From IMG/VR virus record IMGVR_UViG_3300030102_005019, positions 1 to 57,469 of that record: DNA of 57,469 nucleotides; one strand, given 5' to 3'. This DNA comes from a virus (Duplodnaviria > Caudoviricetes). The notes under the pieces are model-generated. The model was given only the letters and a program-made list of their open reading frames with translations. It was not told where the DNA came from and did no database searches. A program made the position numbers and the translations under genes. Shown piece by piece: positions 13,400 to 39,038 of this stretch. The first letter of the stretch is position 1, and each line of letters starts with the position of its first letter.

Positions 13400-13777
13400 A
13401 TGAATAAAATTACAACATTAAAAGCTGATGATAACCTGCGTGAAACAACAGGTAGTTACAAAATAGGTTCTTTAGACAATGTACACTTTAAAGATCTAGT
13501 AAACATGTTGGGTGAACCAACGTTATCAGGTGAATCTGGCGACGGTAAAGTTCAGTTTGAATGGGTGCTAGAGCATGACAATAGGCTCTATACAATATAT
13601 GACTGGAAAACATACGACGCAGAGTACACATTAAACGAGTTAACAACCTGGTCTGTAGGTGGTAAAGAATATATAGACAATGATTTTGTAACAGAAATAT
13701 TCAGGTTGTGTGAAGAAAATTGTCCAGAAAACGTAGCTGAAAGTATTATGTTTTATAGTGGATCTGGATTTAAGTAG
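13400..13777 (+). CDS. Hypothetical phage protein
   Basis: LGEP..DGKVQFEW...TIYDWK...WSVGG motif seen in small phage proteins. Confidence 0.65.
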   Translation: MNKITTLKADDNLRETTGSYKIGSLDNVHFKDLVNMLGEPTLSGESGDGKVQFEWVLEHDNRLYTIYDWKTYDAEYTLNELTTWSVGGKEYIDNDFVTEIFRLCEENCPENVAESIMFYSGSGFK

Positions 13778-13910
13778 GCGGCGGCATACTGGTCACGTTA
13801 GCTTTATACCCGTTAGAAACAATGGTTGAATCCATGACGGTCGTCAAAGCAAAACAGAAAGAGCGGATAAATGATAATACTAGTTAGCTACCAGTCCGCA
13901 ACTGCTGCCT
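13776..13910 (+). ncRNA. Putative structured RNA with T-loop-like hairpin
   Basis: Closing stem AGGCGGCGG/CTGCTGCCT, plus ACTGGT/ACCAGT, GCTTT/AAAGC, CCGTTA/TGACGG and ATGG-TTGAAT-CCAT. Confidence 0.55.
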
Positions 13911-13913
13911 TAT

Positions 13914-14021
13914 TGGCATGATATGGTATTAAAGAGATAACACTAATGATTAGCTGGAACATAAGAAACACGCTGTCGCATAAGAACTCTTACGAAGGTT
14001 CGACTCCTTCCATGTCAACTA
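13914..14021 (+). ncRNA. tRNA-like / miniature tmRNA-like RNA
   Basis: Acceptor TGGCATG/CATGTCA with G3-U70, discriminator A, T-arm GAAGG-TTCGACT-CCTTC, stemless D-loop ATATGGTATTA, P2-like AAGAG/CTCTT. Confidence 0.65.
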
Positions 14022-14090
14022 AGTTATGGCCGAGGATCCATATTAGGTTTTTATTATTTTTATTTTTCATATTTACCTTGGTCATAACTT
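14021..14090 (+). ncRNA. 15-bp hairpin with 40-nt U-rich loop
   Basis: AAGTTATGGCCGAGG / CCTTGGTCATAACTT with two G-U pairs. Confidence 0.45.
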
Positions 14091-14094
14091 TAAT

Positions 14095-14520
14095 ATAGCT
14101 GTAGGTGGGGTTGCAAACCCACTGAAGAGTTAGTACCCAACAACGCCTTGCGGGAACAAGGGGTAGGGGGTTGCTCAGTCATCTAGACGACATGCTTATA
14201 AATATAAGTATGATAATCAGAGATATACTGAGAGCGATTAAGATCTATTACAAAGGAACTATATAGATTGTTCCATGATAGGTATGAAGCTGGCTGATAA
14301 TTAAGGAACACCTCACGCTATTGAGGTTAGCCAGACTGTTGTAATCAGATATGATTATTCAATGAGTAGTAATACTTAAGAATAGTGGTTGAACACTGCA
14401 ACAAGCTATCAAGATTAAGCGGGTAAACCGATTAGCTAGGTCTTATGGTGTCTATACGCCGTCTAACTCGCGCTTAATGTAGCCAACGACGGTCACAAGC
14501 CCGTGTAAATACAGAGTGAG
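14095..14520 (+). ncRNA. Large multi-branched structured ncRNA (closed domain of about 315 nt plus 3' hairpin/pseudoknot)
   Basis: ATAGCT/AGCTAT closing stem enclosing at least eight helices, then ATTAAGCG/CGCTTAAT and ACGG/CCGT hairpins. Confidence 0.6.
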
Positions 14521-14536
14521 CGCAAAATTATAAATT

Positions 14537-14707
14537 ATGGGAATTACAAAAAAACAATTTAATTCGTACGTAACAGTACAAGAATCAGGTATTACTAATA
14601 TGTTCAACGTATCATTAGTAACTGACTTGACAGGGCTGACAAAAGATCAGTGTATTGACATAATGAAAAATTATGAAGAATACAGTAAAAAGTTTTCGAG
14701 TGTATAG
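14537..14707 (+). CDS. Small protein, possibly DUF5049-like (56 aa)
   Basis: MGITKKQFNSYVTVQESGITNMFNVSLV...; the SGxTNMF motif is recalled from small phage proteins. Confidence 0.55.
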   Translation: MGITKKQFNSYVTVQESGITNMFNVSLVTDLTGLTKDQCIDIMKNYEEYSKKFSSV

Positions 14708-14716
14708 CAACAGCGT

Positions 14717-14748
14717 ACAGACACAAAACAAGTTCTTGCGTATAATAT
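14717..14748 (+). promoter_or_regulatory. Early promoter-like motif, copy 8
   Basis: ACAGAC-N18-TATAATAT preceded by GTGTATAGCA. Confidence 0.75.
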
Positions 14749-14771
14749 AATAAACATAAAAAAATAAAATT

Positions 14772-15020
14772 ATGGGAAACATGAGTTATTGCCGCTTTGA
14801 AAATACAGCGGGAGATTTAGAAGATTGTGTACACGCAATCGAAAACGGCGAGATGACAGTAGAAATGTCAGATTACGAAGTTGATGCTTTACAAGATCTG
14901 TTAAACCACAGCTTAAGCATTGTGGCTATGAGAAGAGAAATTGAAAGAGCTATAGATGCGTGGCATGAGCACGAGGCAGAAATGGAAAGACAAGAGGAAG
15001 AAGAGGAAGAAGAAGAATAA
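14772..15020 (+). CDS. Acidic phage protein (MSYCRFENT family)
   Basis: MGNMSYCRFENTAGDLEDC start and poly-Glu tail. Confidence 0.65.
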   Translation: MGNMSYCRFENTAGDLEDCVHAIENGEMTVEMSDYEVDALQDLLNHSLSIVAMRREIERAIDAWHEHEAEMERQEEEEEEEE

Positions 15021-30730: not shown

Positions 30731-33700
30731 TTAATTATTATATTTTCTTTTGTTATATGGGCTTTTGTATCCCTTATTAAGATTATAAGTAGGTCTTTTA
30801 GGTTTACCTTTTGATTTTTTCTTTTTTAAAGCAGCAACAGAATCATCTGGTTCAAAATCTATATTCCACCTATTCCAACCACCTAATAAAGCTATTTTTT
30901 GCCAAATTTCAGTTTCACTATCAAGAGCGTCTTTAATGTTTCTAACTTTATTTAATAACCTATCAGCAGGAATATTAGCAAAAGAACCAGCCGCTGTTAC
31001 AACGTCTAGCGCTGGGTTTTCAACAGATAATCCCATTTCTTTATAATATTTCCAATTATATTCATGACCTCTTGCTGCTCTAATAAATTGATTTGATTTT
31101 ATACCTATTGCAGGAGAAACGTTTAGTGCTTCTATTAATAATCCTGATCTATCAAATCTACCCTCACCTGATCTCATTTTTTGATCTTCTTGTATAAACT
31201 TTAAAGCAACGTTTTTACCTGTAGCTAAAATTGCCCCATATATACCTATACCTCTTAAAAATGTATCTACCATCCTATTTCCAACTGTCGTCAATTGTTT
31301 TTGTTCTCTTTTCTCTTCCTCTTCATTTTTGTCATCATCTTTAGGGAATAGTTGTGAAAATAAAGCGTTTTGTAAAGCATTAAACATTACGTTTTGTAAA
31401 ACAACATAATACATTATTATTGATAGATTTTTTCTTTTACTTCCTCTACCAGCTCTAAAATCTTGTAATGCTTTTACTGTTTTTCTAGTATACTGCATTG
31501 GTGTGTTTTGAAAAGCTAAAAATATTCTACCAACAACATCAGTTTGTTGTTTTGACAATCTATCAGCTCTGGCAGACTGTTGTGTTTCTTCTGTTATTTC
31601 TTGAAAATCACTAAAAGCAAGTTCTTCAGCTACTTTAGGGTCTTTTCCTTTTTTAATATAACTGTTAACTCTGTTTCTAAAAAAAGTAGCACCACCAGCT
31701 GATATTGCAAAAGCATCACCAGCTCTTGTAAATGCAAAACCTTTTTGTAGCATAGTACCTAATAAACTTTGGAAACCTGTTTTATTTCTAATAGCTTCAG
31801 CTATTTCAGCTTCTTGTACATCGGTCCTAAGACCACCTCTTCGTTCTTTTAAGTAATCTGAGTTATATAAATATAAAAAGTCTTTTGCCCATTGTTTTGT
31901 ATCTGCAAAAGCAGCAGAAGCTTTAAATATATTATTATCTGAAAAGTTTATATAGTTAAAAGTAGATATTGTTTGTAGTAAAGCTGATCTTGTGTTAAAA
32001 AACATAGTAACAGCAACAGATCCTCTAATCCAGTTTAAAAAATTATTTATGGTTTTATTAGTACCAACAGGCCTTGATCTTCCAGTTTCCATCCTGTTTA
32101 GTATATCTTTTAATGCGCTTACATAATCGTTACCAAATGTAGCTCTAATTTTATTCATATTGTTTTTAGAAAATATTTGTTCTTTATTTTCTATCCACTC
32201 TTTTAAATATAATTTTCTCGATGTTTCATCTATAGATCTTAAAAAATCTTGTTGTACACTTCCTGCTAACCAACTTTTATCATCAGGGTTTATCCACGTA
32301 TCACCTTGTGGATGTTGCATTATACTACTTAATTGACTTGCATACTTTAAAAGCGTTGGATCACCTAAAACAACACCTTGTAGCTTAGCAACTGTTTGTT
32401 CGTTTTCTATACCAGGTATTTTATAACCTGATTTTGTATATAAATAAACTCGTAATGCTTGATCTTTATTATACCCTAGAACACCGGAGTCTTCGTTTAA
32501 TGTTTTTTGAAAACCTTTGTTGTCTTTTAAAAACTGTTTATACTTAGCACTTTTAGCTTGTCTTGACGTATTTAACATCATAATAGCTTTACCAAAAGGC
32601 CTTACAAGTTTTTTGTCGAAAAAGTCTAATTGTCTTTCGCCTAATGAACCTTTACCTAGCATTGAATATAATAAACCTAAAAAGTCATTAGCGCTAGGTG
32701 GTATAATGTTTCTTATTTTCTTTCTTGTAACTGCAAGGCGAGAAGAAGTAGCTGTATCAATAATATCTCCTTTTTCATATCTAGTATCTTTCAAAGATAA
32801 TATTTCAGCCATCTTTTCTTCTAAAGGTGTTTTCTCTATATCAAAATCATCTTTTACTTTACTAAATTGTTCGTCAGGATTTGTATTTTTCTTTACATTA
32901 TCAATTGATTCTTGTTGTGATATGTTTGGTGCTTGTTGTAGCATGTTTGTTGGTACAAAGCCAGCTTTATAGGCATCACTATTTAAAATTGTTTCTTTAC
33001 CAGATAAAATATCAAATATTAATTGTTTACCTAGGTTGCTATTAGTTTTGTAGCTTTCTAAAGAATATCTTGTTTTTTCTTGTTTTAATATTGTTAGATC
33101 TAATGAAGCTAAACTATTTATACCACCTATAGACGATGTATCGAAATCAGTTGTTTTAATTACAAATAACAATCTGTTTTTTCTTTCTTGTTTAGTATCA
33201 CCAGCTTTTATAAATGCCATTTTATATAAATTAATAAGGTTAAACAAGGCATTGTTTTGTTCTCTTATTTTAGCATCTTTCTGTTTTACTATTGCAGCAA
33301 GTTTTTTATCGTAACTTATCTTATCGTTATTTAATACTTTTCTTATATCATTTAATGTTGTAATATTACCTTCGCCTTTTACCCAATCATTTAATCTATT
33401 TATAAAATTAACTTGGTTTTGATCTAAATTACCTTCAGCTTTTAATTTATTCTTTGAAATAAAATTATCAACTTGTTGTTCAGATAAAGTTATACTTTCA
33501 ATACTTTTTCTATCTCTTAGTATTTTACCGTTTTTATCAACAAGTACTTTGTCATCTGATATATATAGATCATGTGTAACTTGATATAAAGAGTTTATAC
33601 CTTGAAAACCTGTTATTGCTTTAGCTAATCCTTTGTTGTCTTTAAATACATCTGGTAAACTATTTAAAAACTTTTCTTGATATTTTTGTGTTTTAACAAG

Positions 33701-36700
33701 ATTATCATAATCCCACTGTTGTGAGTTGTTTTTATATTTATAAGACATAAAAGCTTTATAATCTTCTCTATTAAGAGTTATGTCATATATTTTATTTGCA
33801 GCGTCTAAAAGTTCTTCATTTTCAAACATGGTTTTTGTAAACCTTTTTAGTTCTGATTTTTCAAAAATCATTTTTTGTAACTCAGGTAATACAAAATCAA
33901 AATCACCTTCTTGACTAAACTGATATTGTGATTTACCTGCAGAAATATTATTTATTGCATTAGGATTTATACCTAACTCTTGCATACGTATTCTTACTTC
34001 TGTATTTATAGCTGCTCTTATAGCAAAGTTTAATATACCTTTTAATCTTTGTGCTTCTGGACTTTGACCATCAAAAAGTTTACCTCTTGCGTCAACTGAT
34101 ATAGGACTGCCATCTGGATTCATACCTGCAACCCTAAGATATTTATTTCTAAACGATTCACTAACAACCGTTTCACCTTGTTCATTTACCTCAAAAGCAT
34201 TATCAGGTAAAACGTATTGTGGATTACCTTGTGCATCTTCAACTCTTCCTGTGCCTAATCTATATGCAACATACAGGTCTAATCCAAACTTTTTATCATT
34301 AATTATTTTAGTAGGTATTCTAACAGATTTACCTTGTACACCAAGATCTGCGTCTTGTACAACACTAGTATATTTAGGTAAAAGTTTTATAAATGAATCT
34401 ACTATAGGGTATATAAACTCTTGTATTTTTATAGCTTCACCTTTACCTAAGTTATCTTTAAAATTTGTTATTTTATTTGGCTTTATACCTATTTTTTGTG
34501 CAAAAGAATTTACAACCTCTTCTAATAATGGTACTTTAGAATATGTTAATTGACTAACGTTCATGTTGTCAATATTATCTACAACTGCTTTTTTAGTCTC
34601 TTTTTGAACATTTAAAAGCTTTGATGGTATTATTGAATCAGGATCAATCTCTTCTACACCTCTTTTAGTATCAAACTCAGAAAAATCTTCTTCAGTTCTA
34701 GCTTCATTAGCAACAAATCCAACTTCACCAGCTTCTATATCTAACCTATTAGCGGCGGTTTTTTTGTATTGTTTTGTTATTTTACCTTTATTATAGTTTA
34801 GGTTAGCGTTAATCCAACCCATTAAACTATCATTTTGTTCAGGATTAAAACGCATTAATACCCCAGTCATTTCTAATTTAACATCTTCAACAAATGTTTC
34901 TATAGGTTTACCATGTACGTTTTTGCCTATAATACCACGTTTTATTAAATGATCTAGTTTATTACCTTGTATTATAGCGTTATAAGCTTTACTAATACCA
35001 CCTTCATCCCACTCTTTTTTACTTACAACATATGCACCGCTACCGTCTTTTTCACCAACCAAATCATCTATTACTTTATTAGCCTGTTCGTAGTCAAAAC
35101 TACCATCTTCTAATTCGAACTCATCTCTTACTTCTGAAAACTGTTTTCTTTTCTTTTTAAGCTCTTTTGCAAGTTTTGTTTTATCAATAGCATCCAAAAC
35201 TTTTTGTGAAACCTCGTTGTTTTGTGCTGACTTACTATATTCAGTTAAAAAGTTAAATACTTGATCAGAATTAGCAAAACCTATTTCTAAATCGTATTGT
35301 TTAAAGAAACTTTTAATGAAATCATAAAGTTTTTCTAAAACTGTTTTGTCAAGAGATAATTCTTGTTTAGCCAAAGCATCGGTAAAAACGTTAAAATATT
35401 CAGTATCATATTTTCCACTTTCAATACCATAACCCCTGCTCTCCATAATAGCATCCATTTCTGATACTTGCCTAGATGTTAATCTTTTTTTAACACCCTC
35501 AACCATTTTACCTTGTTGTTTTTTATTACCTATTTGTGAGTTTATTATAGGGTGTAGCACTTCATGTGCACCTATATTTATTTGAAAAGTATCTTTAGCG
35601 GCTTGTTTATTAAAATATATTTGACCGTTAACGTATACGCCACCTATATTTTTAACCTCTTGTTCTGTTTTACCAAGTATATCAGCAAACTCTTTGTTTG
35701 TTTCTATATCTTGTGACTTTATACCTAAAGCTTCGCCCATTTTAGCACCAAAGCTTGTACTTTTATCTATTATCATTTCAACACCTTGATCTTCTGATAA
35801 AATACCTTTAATTCTTAAAACATTAGAATTAAATTGATCTTTAGCTGCTTTTAGATAAACGTTATATTCGTCTTTTGTAATTTCTTTGTTTTGAAGTTTT
35901 TGATCAAGTTCTTGTAGTTTTATTACTTGACTTTGTGTTTCTTGATTTATGTCAGATATTCTTTTTTGATTTTCTTCTGACAAGTTATTTATTTTAGCGT
36001 TTGATCTACCAACAAGTATTTCAATATTTGCTTTTGCAGTGTCTATATTGTCTTGCGCCTTTTGTCTAACTGAATTATCTTCAGACTCATTTAACACCCT
36101 GCTATTATAAACTAAAGCATTAAAGTTTCTTTGTATTTCATTTGACTCTTTAGTAGATCGTACAGCCGGTCCAGCTGAAATTAAATTTTTTGATGCTCTT
36201 GCACCTCCACCTCCAACAAAACCTTGTAGTAAATTTTCATAAGCATCTTGTTCAGTCAACATTTTTACTAATGTTTCTTTTACCACTTCACCAGATGATT
36301 TACCTTCTGCTATTAATTTGTTTGCTTCAGTAAGCCCATATTGTTTCCACTCTGTTAAAGCTTCAACTGTTCCAACCTCTGCAATATCTAATATTTTTTT
36401 TGTTAATTTTCCAGCGCCTTTACTAGCTAACATACCAGAACCACCTTTTAGTATTTTTCCAATACCTATGTTTTCAAGTAATGATTGACTAAATCCTATT
36501 ATAGCAGGTGTTTTTGTTTCAGCGTCACCAGATTTTATTAAATCAGATAAAGACATGTTTTTTTGCTTGGCTAACTCTTCATTATAATTCAAATAATTTT
36601 CTGCCATAAAATCAAAAAAGAAACCACTACCAAAAGTTGTTACTCCATATGCTATAGAACCAATAGCGTTTATAACAGCGTCGATACCCGCTGCAACAAC

Positions 36701-37222
36701 GCCAGGAATATCACCTTCTTTAACCGATTGTATGATTTTTTTTGTAGGTAATTTTTGTTGTTGTTCTATTCTAAAAGCTGGTATTGCTTCTAACAGATCT
36801 TGTTCTGTCATACCCTCTAATAACCATGAGTCTTTACCATATTTTTTTTCTAGATTTAATACAGTTTGCCTACCTAATATAGTTTGGGCTAATGCAGAAC
36901 TAGCTAAATCTAAAGCAGGAGATTCACCAGTATAAAACTCACCTATGTCTCCTAATTGTTCTACAAAATTTTTAAAACTATTTTTTATGGATTCACCAAA
37001 GCTAATTCTTGAGTTTTGTGAAACCGAAGAACCATCTACCAAATTTAAGTCCATATTGGGTGCTTTTGACAGCAGAGCAGTCACACCCTGGTCTGCTCCT
37101 TGCAACTTTACTTGTTCTTGATTATCTTGTAAAATTGCGTCTGGGTGTTTTAATAGAAACTCTTGTTTTCTATTTGGGGCAACTTCGAAAAGTTTACCAT
37201 TAACTAAATAAAATTCATTCAT
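30731..37222 (-). CDS. Large internal virion / ejection protein (about 2160 aa)
   Basis: Likely start ATG 37222; helical; HEVLH zincin-like motif; located at the end of the structural module. Confidence 0.7.
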   Translation of the reverse strand: MNEFYLVNGKLFEVAPNRKQEFLLKHPDAILQDNQEQVKLQGADQGVTALLSKAPNMDLNLVDGSSVSQNSRISFGESIKNSFKNFVEQLGDIGEFYTGESPALDLASSALAQTILGRQTVLNLEKKYGKDSWLLEGMTEQDLLEAIPAFRIEQQQKLPTKKIIQSVKEGDIPGVVAAGIDAVINAIGSIAYGVTTFGSGFFFDFMAENYLNYNEELAKQKNMSLSDLIKSGDAETKTPAIIGFSQSLLENIGIGKILKGGSGMLASKGAGKLTKKILDIAEVGTVEALTEWKQYGLTEANKLIAEGKSSGEVVKETLVKMLTEQDAYENLLQGFVGGGGARASKNLISAGPAVRSTKESNEIQRNFNALVYNSRVLNESEDNSVRQKAQDNIDTAKANIEILVGRSNAKINNLSEENQKRISDINQETQSQVIKLQELDQKLQNKEITKDEYNVYLKAAKDQFNSNVLRIKGILSEDQGVEMIIDKSTSFGAKMGEALGIKSQDIETNKEFADILGKTEQEVKNIGGVYVNGQIYFNKQAAKDTFQINIGAHEVLHPIINSQIGNKKQQGKMVEGVKKRLTSRQVSEMDAIMESRGYGIESGKYDTEYFNVFTDALAKQELSLDKTVLEKLYDFIKSFFKQYDLEIGFANSDQVFNFLTEYSKSAQNNEVSQKVLDAIDKTKLAKELKKKRKQFSEVRDEFELEDGSFDYEQANKVIDDLVGEKDGSGAYVVSKKEWDEGGISKAYNAIIQGNKLDHLIKRGIIGKNVHGKPIETFVEDVKLEMTGVLMRFNPEQNDSLMGWINANLNYNKGKITKQYKKTAANRLDIEAGEVGFVANEARTEEDFSEFDTKRGVEEIDPDSIIPSKLLNVQKETKKAVVDNIDNMNVSQLTYSKVPLLEEVVNSFAQKIGIKPNKITNFKDNLGKGEAIKIQEFIYPIVDSFIKLLPKYTSVVQDADLGVQGKSVRIPTKIINDKKFGLDLYVAYRLGTGRVEDAQGNPQYVLPDNAFEVNEQGETVVSESFRNKYLRVAGMNPDGSPISVDARGKLFDGQSPEAQRLKGILNFAIRAAINTEVRIRMQELGINPNAINNISAGKSQYQFSQEGDFDFVLPELQKMIFEKSELKRFTKTMFENEELLDAANKIYDITLNREDYKAFMSYKYKNNSQQWDYDNLVKTQKYQEKFLNSLPDVFKDNKGLAKAITGFQGINSLYQVTHDLYISDDKVLVDKNGKILRDRKSIESITLSEQQVDNFISKNKLKAEGNLDQNQVNFINRLNDWVKGEGNITTLNDIRKVLNNDKISYDKKLAAIVKQKDAKIREQNNALFNLINLYKMAFIKAGDTKQERKNRLLFVIKTTDFDTSSIGGINSLASLDLTILKQEKTRYSLESYKTNSNLGKQLIFDILSGKETILNSDAYKAGFVPTNMLQQAPNISQQESIDNVKKNTNPDEQFSKVKDDFDIEKTPLEEKMAEILSLKDTRYEKGDIIDTATSSRLAVTRKKIRNIIPPSANDFLGLLYSMLGKGSLGERQLDFFDKKLVRPFGKAIMMLNTSRQAKSAKYKQFLKDNKGFQKTLNEDSGVLGYNKDQALRVYLYTKSGYKIPGIENEQTVAKLQGVVLGDPTLLKYASQLSSIMQHPQGDTWINPDDKSWLAGSVQQDFLRSIDETSRKLYLKEWIENKEQIFSKNNMNKIRATFGNDYVSALKDILNRMETGRSRPVGTNKTINNFLNWIRGSVAVTMFFNTRSALLQTISTFNYINFSDNNIFKASAAFADTKQWAKDFLYLYNSDYLKERRGGLRTDVQEAEIAEAIRNKTGFQSLLGTMLQKGFAFTRAGDAFAISAGGATFFRNRVNSYIKKGKDPKVAEELAFSDFQEITEETQQSARADRLSKQQTDVVGRIFLAFQNTPMQYTRKTVKALQDFRAGRGSKRKNLSIIMYYVVLQNVMFNALQNALFSQLFPKDDDKNEEEEKREQKQLTTVGNRMVDTFLRGIGIYGAILATGKNVALKFIQEDQKMRSGEGRFDRSGLLIEALNVSPAIGIKSNQFIRAARGHEYNWKYYKEMGLSVENPALDVVTAAGSFANIPADRLLNKVRNIKDALDSETEIWQKIALLGGWNRWNIDFEPDDSVAALKKKKSKGKPKRPTYNLNKGYKSPYNKRKYNN

Positions 37223-37223
37223 A

Positions 37224-39038
37224 TTATTGTGCAAAAGATTTATCAACGTCTTCTTGACCTCCAAAAATAGAGATTCTACGTTTTAATTTATCTATTAGTT
37301 CTTTTAATTCAGCTCTACTAATACCATCAAGACCTCTACTTGATCTACTAAATACCTCGCCAGTTTCTTCATTTATGTAATAACGTGATTTATTTGTCTT
37401 ATATAAGTCTTCATATTCTTTAACCTGCATACCCATATCAGTTAACATTTGTTGTACTTCTATAGGATCTAACTCACCTTTATCAATTAAGTCTTGATAA
37501 ACCTCGTTATCGTCCTTAAGTTGTCTTATTAATAATTGTAATGCTCTTTTTGATATTCTTTCACCATCAACTGTTACCATACCAGAAGATGTTTTACTAT
37601 ATAACTCTTCTAATTCAGCTATTTTACTAGTATTAGCTTGAAGTGTTTCGTTTAACGCCTCAGGAGATAATGCTTGCTCAGTTTGTTCAAGTTGTTCTTG
37701 TTTAAGTTTTTCTTGTCTTAGTTTTTCTTTTTCAACCTGTTCTTGAACTCTTAATCTATAATCGTCTCTTAAAAGTCCTTTTGCTTTTTGTAGTTTTCTA
37801 GGATCTGCACCATATCTCATTTCCAACATATAATTAGCTAATTTAAATTGACCAGTTAGTGTCCTTACATCAAATGTTGCTGGTACTATTTCGTTATCTA
37901 TAGTTAATAAACCTGGTATATTAACAACACCTAGCCCAGTGTTTGGATCTACATCTGTCATTGTTACTGGATCATCACCTGCTGTTAAATTAAAATCTAA
38001 CATACTCGGTAGAGTTACCGGATCACTTATGTCAGTGTAAATTTTATTAATTTCACCTATAAGATTTTGTTGTTCAACTAAATCATTTCTTTGCTCAGCT
38101 GTTAAATTATTTAAAGGATTTTGCTGCTCCTCTAAACGCATATTTATTCTATTTACAGTTCTCGAACCGTTTTGTAATTGAAACTTAAGATATTCAATTA
38201 TAGCACCATCTTGATCTTGTATAGCCTTTTCTTTTTCTTCTTGTGTCATGGTATCAGGAAAATCATTATATCTTATAGATATATCTGTTGCTGCTCTAGC
38301 GTAATCGTTAAATAATACCCTTTTTGTTTGATCGTCCATTAAACCAAATAATCTAGTTGCTTCTGCATCTATATCACCCGTTATTTTGTCTTGAATTTTT
38401 AAAGGATCTTCTGCTTGTTGATATCTATAATCTATAGCGTTTATACTGTTTTTTAACATACCATCAAGACCTGTTAATATATCAGTTTTGTTTTTTAATA
38501 AATCTACTTTATCTGGTATTTTATCAGCCATTAGTATTTTAGTAGCACCATTAGGCATTTTAAATGATAAAGCTGGCCCACCGCTATACATAATAACTTC
38601 AAAACCGTTTATTTTATTTGTTAAAAAATCTTTAAACGTACCATCATCTAAACCAAATAAATCTATTTCTGTAGGATCTAATTTTACAGCTGTGCCTAAT
38701 TTCGTTAGCGGATTTAAAATACCCATACCTATTTCATCATATATCTCTTGTCTTTGTTGTTGATTAGCATTAGCAAACATACCGTTTTCAACATATCTTT
38801 CGTTTATAGTTTTTTTGGTAATATCAGCTACATCTTTACCAAAAGTTTTAGCTATAGTAGGATAGTCCATTTCTTTATTGAACTGGGCTAAAGCATAGTC
38901 TAACTGTTGTTTTTCTTTTTCTTCTTTTTCAGATTGTTTTTCATAATAGGCTCTGTGTTTTTCTATAGTGCTTAAAAAGCTTTTTAGAAAAGCATTAGGA
39001 TCACCTACAAATAAATTTCCTGGATTTCTATAACTCAT
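37224..39038 (-). CDS. Putative internal virion / ejection protein
   Basis: 604 aa, coiled-coil rich; MSYRNP start; position in the module. Confidence 0.55.
   Translation of the reverse strand: MSYRNPGNLFVGDPNAFLKSFLSTIEKHRAYYEKQSEKEEKEKQQLDYALAQFNKEMDYPTIAKTFGKDVADITKKTINERYVENGMFANANQQQRQEIYDEIGMGILNPLTKLGTAVKLDPTEIDLFGLDDGTFKDFLTNKINGFEVIMYSGGPALSFKMPNGATKILMADKIPDKVDLLKNKTDILTGLDGMLKNSINAIDYRYQQAEDPLKIQDKITGDIDAEATRLFGLMDDQTKRVLFNDYARAATDISIRYNDFPDTMTQEEKEKAIQDQDGAIIEYLKFQLQNGSRTVNRINMRLEEQQNPLNNLTAEQRNDLVEQQNLIGEINKIYTDISDPVTLPSMLDFNLTAGDDPVTMTDVDPNTGLGVVNIPGLLTIDNEIVPATFDVRTLTGQFKLANYMLEMRYGADPRKLQKAKGLLRDDYRLRVQEQVEKEKLRQEKLKQEQLEQTEQALSPEALNETLQANTSKIAELEELYSKTSSGMVTVDGERISKRALQLLIRQLKDDNEVYQDLIDKGELDPIEVQQMLTDMGMQVKEYEDLYKTNKSRYYINEETGEVFSRSSRGLDGISRAELKELIDKLKRRISIFGGQEDVDKSFAQ

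Follow-up and report, generated by a model that had tools for sequence, protein, structure and literature searches.

A conserved structured RNA followed by a predicted twister ribozyme in the early region of a phage genome

The locus and its genetic setting

The window, the whole stretch of DNA that was analysed, is an entire IMG/VR virus record of 57,469 bp with an estimated completeness of 89%. In a terminase search its large terminase matches 87 phage records, divided among Flavobacterium (68), Cellulophaga (15), Tenacibaculum (2), Maribacter (1) and uncultured (1), and the uncultured record is the best match at 62%. On terminase similarity its closest isolated counterparts are podoviruses of flavobacteria, of the elemo or Cellulophaga type. 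Given these terminase matches, the window most likely represents a podovirus-type phage of marine Flavobacteriia. All genes between ~8.0 and 27.0 kb lie on the + strand, beginning with small ORFs without an assigned role and continuing with a sigma-factor-like protein, an exonuclease and a primase-helicase, after which thymidylate synthase, MazG and ribonucleotide reductase follow on the same strand. The structured RNA described here, with a predicted twister ribozyme at its 3′ side (Table 1), sits among the small ORFs in a 760-nt stretch (13778-14536) that holds no ORF of 60 aa or more. A first-pass annotation had called this region ORF-free and proposed a large multi-branched RNA within it; the overlapping frames are indeed just 30–42 aa. 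Elsewhere, within the virion-gene block, a 2177-aa ORF (30731-37264, - strand) adjoins a 604-aa ORF (37224-39038, - strand). These two have no PHROG match at 1e-5, and their sole Pfam match is a weak one, SAV0927-like on the 2177-aa ORF (E 0.0044), which falls short of its cut-off.

Two further elements precede the RNA. Element A is a second structured RNA with no Rfam match, covered by an RNA-library contig (13780-13951, depth 26.5). Its counterparts in two related phages (L081 848-983 and L082 4278-4427) keep the outer stems and the 3′ half, and are followed after 4–8 nt by a genuine tRNA (65.1 bits) at the place where the window has a tRNA-like element. The 3′ end of element A may be set by tRNA processing. 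The tRNA-like element itself, which bears out the tRNA neighbourhood anticipated earlier, scores 22.7 bits against an Rfam cut-off of 29 and is rejected by ARAGORN. Its acceptor stem and T arm are well formed (GGTTCGACTCC), its anticodon stem is imperfect and its variable region has ~25 additional nt. The near-twin contig L216 has an identical copy, with other sequence in place of element A.

Table 1. Positions of the RNA, its helices and adjacent features in the window
Feature	Position	Strand	Remarks
Element A, second structured RNA	13778-13918	+	~140 nt; directly past the stop codon of the 125-aa gene
tRNA-like element	13919-14018	+	100 nt
A+T-rich block, possible promoter	14062-14096	+	TTTTTCATATTTA, AACTTTAATAT; -10-like TAATAT at 14091-14096
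Structured ncRNA	14097-14475	+	~375–379 nt between putative ends; fold z, covariation, recurring helices, RNA-library contigs
P1 hairpin GGUGGG/CCCACU	14104-14123	+	both-side changes in 4/6 pairs
P1 loop, 8 nt, with palindrome UUGCAA	14110-14117	+	identical in 8/8 sequences
P2 closing helix, 5′ strand GAGUUAG	14127-14133	+	partner 14463-14469
P3 (CCC/GGG) around P3a hairpin (CCUUG/CAAGG)	14136-14169	+	in folds of all four clades
P4 domain	14169-14239	+	stem 14169-14176/14232-14239 with three hairpins
P4a (GUC-AUCUA-GAC), P4b (loop AAAU), P4c (UCAG/CUGA)	within 14169-14239	+	
P5 domain	14240-14444	+	stem 14240-14247/14437-14444
P5a	14255-14274	+	inside P5
P6	14276-14283/14404-14411	+	inside P5
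P6a/P6a′, loop CGCUAU	14290-14334	+	inside P5
P6.1 (tentative)	14337-14343/14397-14403	+	inside P5
P6c, GUAA loop	14351-14389	+	inside P5
P6d (tentative)	~14384-14397	+	inside P5
P7	14415-14435	+	inside P5
P8 hairpin GGUGU-CUAU-ACGCC	14447-14460	+	both-side changes in 4/4 pairs
P2 closing helix, 3′ strand CUAACUC	14463-14469	+	against the ribozyme, adjacency in 8/8
Predicted type-P1 twister without P3	14471-14522	+	RF03160 match, model 1-68
First downstream ORF, 56 aa	14537-14707	+	starts 14 nt past the ribozyme

Fold and conservation of the large RNA

Folding of the + strand of 14095-14520 yields -125.1 kcal/mol, whereas dinucleotide shuffles average -103.5 ± 5.2 (z -4.15), and none of 100 shuffles does as well. 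On the - strand z is -1.30, and 12 of 100 shuffles do as well. Since the two strands differ in this way, the original argument for structure at the RNA level on the + strand holds, as does the expectation that the region folds better than its shuffled controls.

Homologues were found by several routes. The first, L083, from three loci reached via the sigma-like protein, is 91.1% identical over 451 nt (window 14086-14536) with a sharp stop at either side. A ribozyme-core scan of viral contigs gave L174 and L180, which have the same ribozyme P1 sequence and a diverged upstream RNA. A P1-strand pattern occurs in 9 viral and at least 118 metagenome stretches; in 12 of the 127 matches listed a twister core then follows, and all 12 belong to the ncRNA family, one of them truncated. 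The family comprises the window and seven distinct relatives from uncultured viral or metagenome contigs, at least eight distinct sequences as a lower bound, and falls into four clades: window/L216/L084, L174/L200/L318, L308 and L180.

Other searches returned little. The window stretch has no BLAST match in the GenBank phage collection, and there the RNAs of L174 and L180 match only with their 30–44-nt twister part, in one record. None of 79 loci with a relative of the upstream 125-aa protein has the RNA (best blastn 31 nt, E 0.023), and the exact ribozyme 34-mer has 0 matches in viral contigs. One candidate reached via a junction 18-mer, L085, was rejected as a chance match within coding sequence. 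A ribozyme-independent, family-specific gapped pattern occurs in just 4 already known viral contigs and in 0 of 185,579 prokaryote genomes. The RNA family appears to be rare and to date comes only from uncultured viral and metagenome contigs, and the runs with the window's RNA copy are labelled marine or seawater metagenomes.

Covariation was assessed on a plain MAFFT alignment (sequence only) of the eight distinct sequences from the four clades. RNAalifold predicts 71 consensus pairs, 32 of them with changes on both sides, a number that none of 500 shuffles reaches. The consensus pairing holds in 97.7% of 568 cells versus 82.5 ± 1.1 in shuffles (0/500 as high), with 96 double-change cells versus 35.7 and a covariation score of 0.501 versus 0.196 (0/500). 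Sliding the partners by 1–3 columns leaves 3–8 covarying pairs and 30–47% pairing. Of the predicted pairs, 14 are changed between L083 and the window, five on both sides and nine on one, and none is broken. Covariation among homologues, on which the first-pass annotation had made its proposal depend, is present by comparison with shuffles, and the large multi-branched RNA proposed for this phage is a conserved, strand-specific, covarying fold. A DNA-level element such as an origin, packaging site or recombination hotspot, or a spacer with chance hairpins, would fit a gene-free stretch with shuffled genes at its flanks, yet it is extremely improbable given the strand-specific fold signal, the G-U-tolerant covariation, the ribozyme on the same strand and the discrete cover in RNA libraries described below.

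MAFFT misaligns the centre of the RNA; therefore each sequence was also folded singly, cut at the predicted cleavage site. Anchor-based realignment is no better than MAFFT. The RNA has ~17–19 helices around the closing helix P2, of which 14 (P1, P2, P3, P3a, P4, P4a, P4b, P4c, P5, P5a, P6, P6a/a′, P7 and P8) recur in all four clades at matching positions with stem sequences that differ among clades. P2 is paired in 100% of cells, with one pair changing from G-C to A-U in 4/8 sequences, and both-side changes occur in 4/5 pairs of P3 and 6/8 pairs of P4b. The same three-hairpin P4 domain appears in the folds of L216, L174, L308 and L180 with different stem sequences, and the P5 pairs that differ between the window and L083 remain paired. 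P6b, P6c and P6d are found in most clades, P6b being absent from the window clade and L180 folding that part differently. The single-stranded features that are kept include the P1 loop R-UUGCAA-R (8/8), the P4a loop AUCYA, the P4b loop AAAU, the P6a′ loop CGCY.. and GNRA-type loops on P7 and on P6d or P6c.

Seven of the 12 helices originally proposed match the shared fold of the homologues: GTGGG/CCCAC is P1, CCTTG/CAAGG is P3a, CATGCTTATA/TATAAGTATG is P4b, GGAAC/GTTCC is P5a, CTGGCTGA/TTAGCCAG is P6a, CCTCA/TGAGG is P6a′ and the TATTC..GTAA..GAATA hairpin is P6c. The other five are not kept in the family. The outermost of the original pairings, ATAGCT/AGCTAT, gives way to P2 as the closing helix, and TGTAGGTG/CACTGCA and ATTACA/TGTAAT are two more of the five. 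At the place of CTCAGT/ACTGAG the family has P4, P4a and P4c; the minimum-energy fold of the window does pick CUCAGU/ACUGAG there, and that of its near-twin L216 gives the family version. The fifth, ATTAAGCG/CGCTTAAT, has as its 3′ half the 5′ strand of the twister P1 together with the cleavage site. It was also considered as a ribozyme-masking alternative and set aside, as it is not kept beyond the window clade. A pseudoknot between a 5′ GCG and the CGCY loop of P6a′, for which most members offer no more than 3 bp, was considered unsupported. A helix P0, formed by the 5′ end and the 3′ tail, is a possibility of 3–5 bp with nearly no covariation, and may lie upstream of the true 5′ end.

The RNA is a module largely apart from its neighbours. 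Between the window and L084 it is 91% identical, as against 34–79% for the neighbouring proteins, which are partly reordered, and the upstream 125-aa protein of the window is the downstream protein in L084. Because the ORF after the ribozyme differs among members, being unrelated between clades, the RNA is not tied to one downstream gene; where the window has its 56-aa ORF, other family members have a different one. In L081 and L082, whose sigma-like protein is 73% identical, the RNA is absent and the matching site has no RNA-sized gap. No conserved protein partner across clades was found near the RNA. A ~200-aa protein is encoded within 1 kb of it in L174 (+872), L318 (+808), L308 (+66) and L180 (-981); this protein matches nothing in Pfam or PHROG, and the window clade yielded no counterpart of it.

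The twister match and the two ends of the RNA

Scanned permissively against Rfam, 13700-14620 has five matches: twister, the tRNA-like element, and three at E 3.5–7 that were disregarded. The twister match (RF03160) reaches 55.8 bits (E 1.2e-11), below the gathering cut-off of 67.2. In the cmscan alignment P1, P2 and P4 occur in order, the core letters are matched and posteriors are mostly maximal; the shortfall in score coincides with 16 deleted consensus columns, those of P3. Full-length matches recur in all eight members, at 55.8 bits in the window, 54.8–56.2 in six relatives and 56.2 in L083. By every sequence and structure criterion but the curated score, 14471-14522 is predicted to be a twister, the only module of the RNA stretch recognisable by Rfam. 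The interval that had been read as one RNA divides accordingly in this prediction, its last ~50 nt being a separate ribozyme module that the first reading missed. The twister P1 begins one nt past the 3′ strand of P2 in every member (8/8). Because scores of 54.8–56.2 bits lie below the gathering cut-off, routine annotation at that threshold misses the twisters of all eight members.

The nucleotides that we take to form the T1 pseudoknot, between the P4 loop and the 3′ internal-loop strand, are CCC and GGG in the Rfam consensus and CAC and GUG in the family. Among the 115 CAC-core phage matches listed, 106 have GAGTG and 0 have GAGGG, with 9 that differ or are not twister-like. This CAC/GUG pattern is the covariation expected of a predicted T1 pseudoknot. 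The short linker without P3 is likewise found in 48 of the 103 phage twisters of the CAC variant among the matches listed. The CAC/GUG twister core is common in viral contigs, with more than 114 stretches (IMG/VR loci L086-L198), most of them directly after an ORF and frequently preceded by a G+C-rich hairpin. The combination of a twister and a large RNA is special to the ncRNA family, at least in the sample examined, because the upstream ORF-free length past the ribozyme has a median of 0 nt in the 105 phage CAC-variant twisters with a measurable upstream region among the matches listed, and the two largest values (392 and 440 nt) belong to family members. A tRNA upstream of phage twisters, looked for by analogy with theta ribozymes, was seen at 1 of 116 listed sites and is hence not general.

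The cut is predicted between U14475 and A14476, at the position that we take to be cleaved in twisters, 5′ of AA in the UAA loop. It would leave a 6-nt tail, GCGCUU (14470-14475), on the ncRNA, and the twister is in this way predicted to define its 3′ end. The proposed position follows from twister membership and from where the RNA contigs stop.

Parts of the stretch are contained in 20 of the 24 public runs listed, 6 of which are RNA libraries. RNA contigs from four marine metatranscriptome runs (three studies) were compared with 13600-15000; they are assembled contigs, given with neither strand nor true ends and from libraries in which DNA is possible. The best covers 14116-14471 (356 nt, depth 46.6, 0 mismatches), and the others 14101-14425 (depth 15.3, 0 mismatches), 14126-14414 (depth 71.2, adapter-flanked) and 14166-14377 (depth 14.5). 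Each of the four runs gives a contig confined to the ncRNA, with joint cover of 14101-14471, and all four have zero cover at 13976-14069 and 14493-14680; the next gene has a depth of 2.8, in one run. Uniform DNA would not yield this pattern. Transcription, which the original proposal required, is supported by these four libraries as far as assembled contigs with possible DNA carry-over allow. The best contig ends 4 nt before the predicted cut, and a stop at 14471 with a bare 3′ part of the ribozyme is the pattern to be expected if the RNA were cut and the 3′ product then decayed. Variant letters in two runs at 14192, 14213, 14236 and 14243, several of them common to L216 or L083, are natural alleles.

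At the 5′ side, similarity between the window and L083/L084 begins at ~14062, and genes further upstream are unrelated. Among L174-L200 it begins ~8 nt before a conserved GCGUAGG that precedes P1. A TAnnAT-like hexamer lies just upstream in most members, as judged by eye. A sigma-70 consensus scan found no site in the A+T-rich block; promoters of Bacteroidota, to which the host probably belongs, follow another consensus. Because no sigma-70 site was found, a 5′ end at 14097-14104 and a promoter of the RNA's own are inferred from the similarity boundaries and the contig start at 14101. In the L174 clade (L174 ~2330-2420 on the - strand, L318 and L200) a conserved ~75-nt hairpin with a U-run, which looks like a terminator, precedes the RNA, and L200 has an extra ~85-nt insertion between this hairpin and the RNA.

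These ends bear on two other readings. The fold could be a cis-acting leader, a 5′ UTR sensor, thermometer or stabiliser whose twister tunes the ORF 14 nt downstream. It shares the strand of the early genes, no terminator was found between it and the ORF, and an ORF starts 10–66 nt past the ribozyme in 7/8 members; twisters have also been proposed to process polycistronic transcripts in the review cited (PMC6765202). We nevertheless regard a leader as unlikely, since the downstream ORFs are unrelated between clades, cleavage would detach the fold from the mRNA, cover by RNA contigs extends over the fold and not the ORF, and ~375 nt with 17–19 helices far exceeds known leaders. In the second reading the RNA would be a precursor of a circular RNA, its 2′,3′-cyclic phosphate being joined by an RtcB-type ligase to a nearby 5′-OH as in engineered twister-flanked circles. 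In most members the 3′ tail UGCU is complementary to the 5′ AGC(R), and their pairing would bring the ends close, but it is 3–5 bp nearly without covariation. With neither a second ribozyme nor a conserved upstream structure to provide a 5′-OH, upstream sequences that differ between clades, and no joints in the RNA contigs compared, a circle is very improbable.

Proposed role and comparison with known RNAs

It is likely, in our judgement, that the locus is a self-contained phage gene for a large trans-acting ncRNA whose 3′ end is made by a built-in ribozyme. Transcription of the + strand would enter from the A+T-rich block just upstream, and the RNA would fold, as covariation indicates, into its ~17–19 helices about P2. 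The twister, adjoining P2 without a linker, would then cut itself after U14475 and free a ~375-nt RNA with the 6-nt tail and a 2′,3′-cyclic phosphate, leaving a downstream early mRNA that keeps the 5′-OH and is read on without a terminator. The ORF at 14537-14707 would be carried on this 5′-OH product. The freed RNA would accumulate as a discrete species, as the metatranscriptome contigs support, and its tail may, speculatively, re-pair with the 5′ end. As a best guess, the RNA would act in host takeover as a compact particle, alone or with protein; the large fold itself could conceivably be catalytic.

The palindromic P1 loop UUGCAA is invariant in all eight sequences while the P1 stem covaries, which suggests that the loop may mediate self-association. 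It is one of few conserved loops, and with a random hexamer being self-complementary in 1/64 of cases the palindrome could also be due to chance. Symmetric palindromic kissing loops are described as holding OLE, ROOL and GOLLD oligomers together (PMC12286853). A bolder and less probable reading is that the RNA belongs to a new ornate phage class that matures itself by its twister and forms an RNA-only symmetric dimer or larger particle through a UUGCAA kissing loop. If true, the RNA would in principle amount to a small marine counterpart of the nanocages formed by ROOL and GOLLD, and its ribozyme would be the first natural twister whose job is making a stable ncRNA.

At Rfam gathering thresholds the whole window has no match, and ARAGORN finds no tRNA or tmRNA in it. 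For the large RNA only the twister is credible, with 13700-14620 searched to E 10 and six relatives to E 1; the cmscan check proposed earlier was negative for GOLLD, ROOL, introns and RNase P and turned up the twister instead. As no Rfam model but twister matches, the RNA is not a GOLLD, ROOL, intron or RNase P RNA, and of the two options first offered, membership of GOLLD or ROOL falls away and a class of its own is favoured. Intron, RNase P RNA, tmRNA and phi29 pRNA models give no match, and what flanks the RNA varies from member to member, with unrelated genes or spacers on either side. That the RNA is a much diverged GOLLD, ROOL, group I or II intron, RNase P RNA, tmRNA or phi29-type pRNA would agree with a large, ornate, phage-borne RNA near a tRNA-like element, or in L308 ~390 nt downstream of a tRNA, a context described as common to GOLLD and ROOL (PMC5737381, PMC12286853). 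Only the twister and tRNA models match credibly in Rfam 15 (window stretch to E 10, six relatives to E 1), however, ARAGORN finds no tmRNA, there are no flanking exons, and 375 nt compares with ~580 for ROOL and >800 for GOLLD, so that a known class in disguise has very little probability. The sequence comparisons place it as a new RNA class within the known kind of ornate phage RNAs, distinguished by its predicted ribozyme-made 3′ end. A full-text search found no published description; supplementary tables of motif surveys (e.g. PMC5737381, PMC8040213) were outside its scope.

In a 2019 review the role of bacterial and phage twisters was called undetermined (PMC6765202). Here that role becomes testable, the apparent task of the predicted twister being to free a stable RNA while transcription of the operon has to continue. 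The RNA also opens to test the number and roles of large ornate phage RNA classes. Its length suits chemical probing and cryo-EM, its covariation is clear and ocean metatranscriptomes already show it; both questions can be tested on one small construct.

Compared with the RF03160 consensus, the whole model (1-68) is aligned with P1, P2, P4 and the core, and T1 is kept by the CAC/GUG switch, whereas P3 is missing and no linker separates the ribozyme from the closing helix of the large RNA to which it is fused. The theta ribozymes, minimal HDV-like ribozymes that adjoin phage tRNAs (PMC10879173), offer a parallel in that a small phage self-cleaving ribozyme trims an adjoining stable RNA; they are of another ribozyme class and their cargo is a tRNA. 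A laboratory type-P1 twister placed after an RNA leaves a few nt on the product and an exact 3′ end, as reported for that construct (PMC9521606). Unlike such laboratory cis ribozymes, the predicted twister of the ncRNA is natural, conserved and inside a phage early operon. With ROOL and GOLLD, as described in the cited accounts, the RNA has in common that it is phage-encoded, large, built of many helices, near tRNA or tRNA-like genes and abundant as RNA (PMC12286853, PMC5737381), and that it has a conserved symmetric loop which could allow self-association of the kind seen in their cryo-EM structures (PMC12286853), the oligomer here being a prediction. It differs from both in its smaller size (~375 nt), in its helix plan and in a 3′ end predicted to be set by a ribozyme cut.
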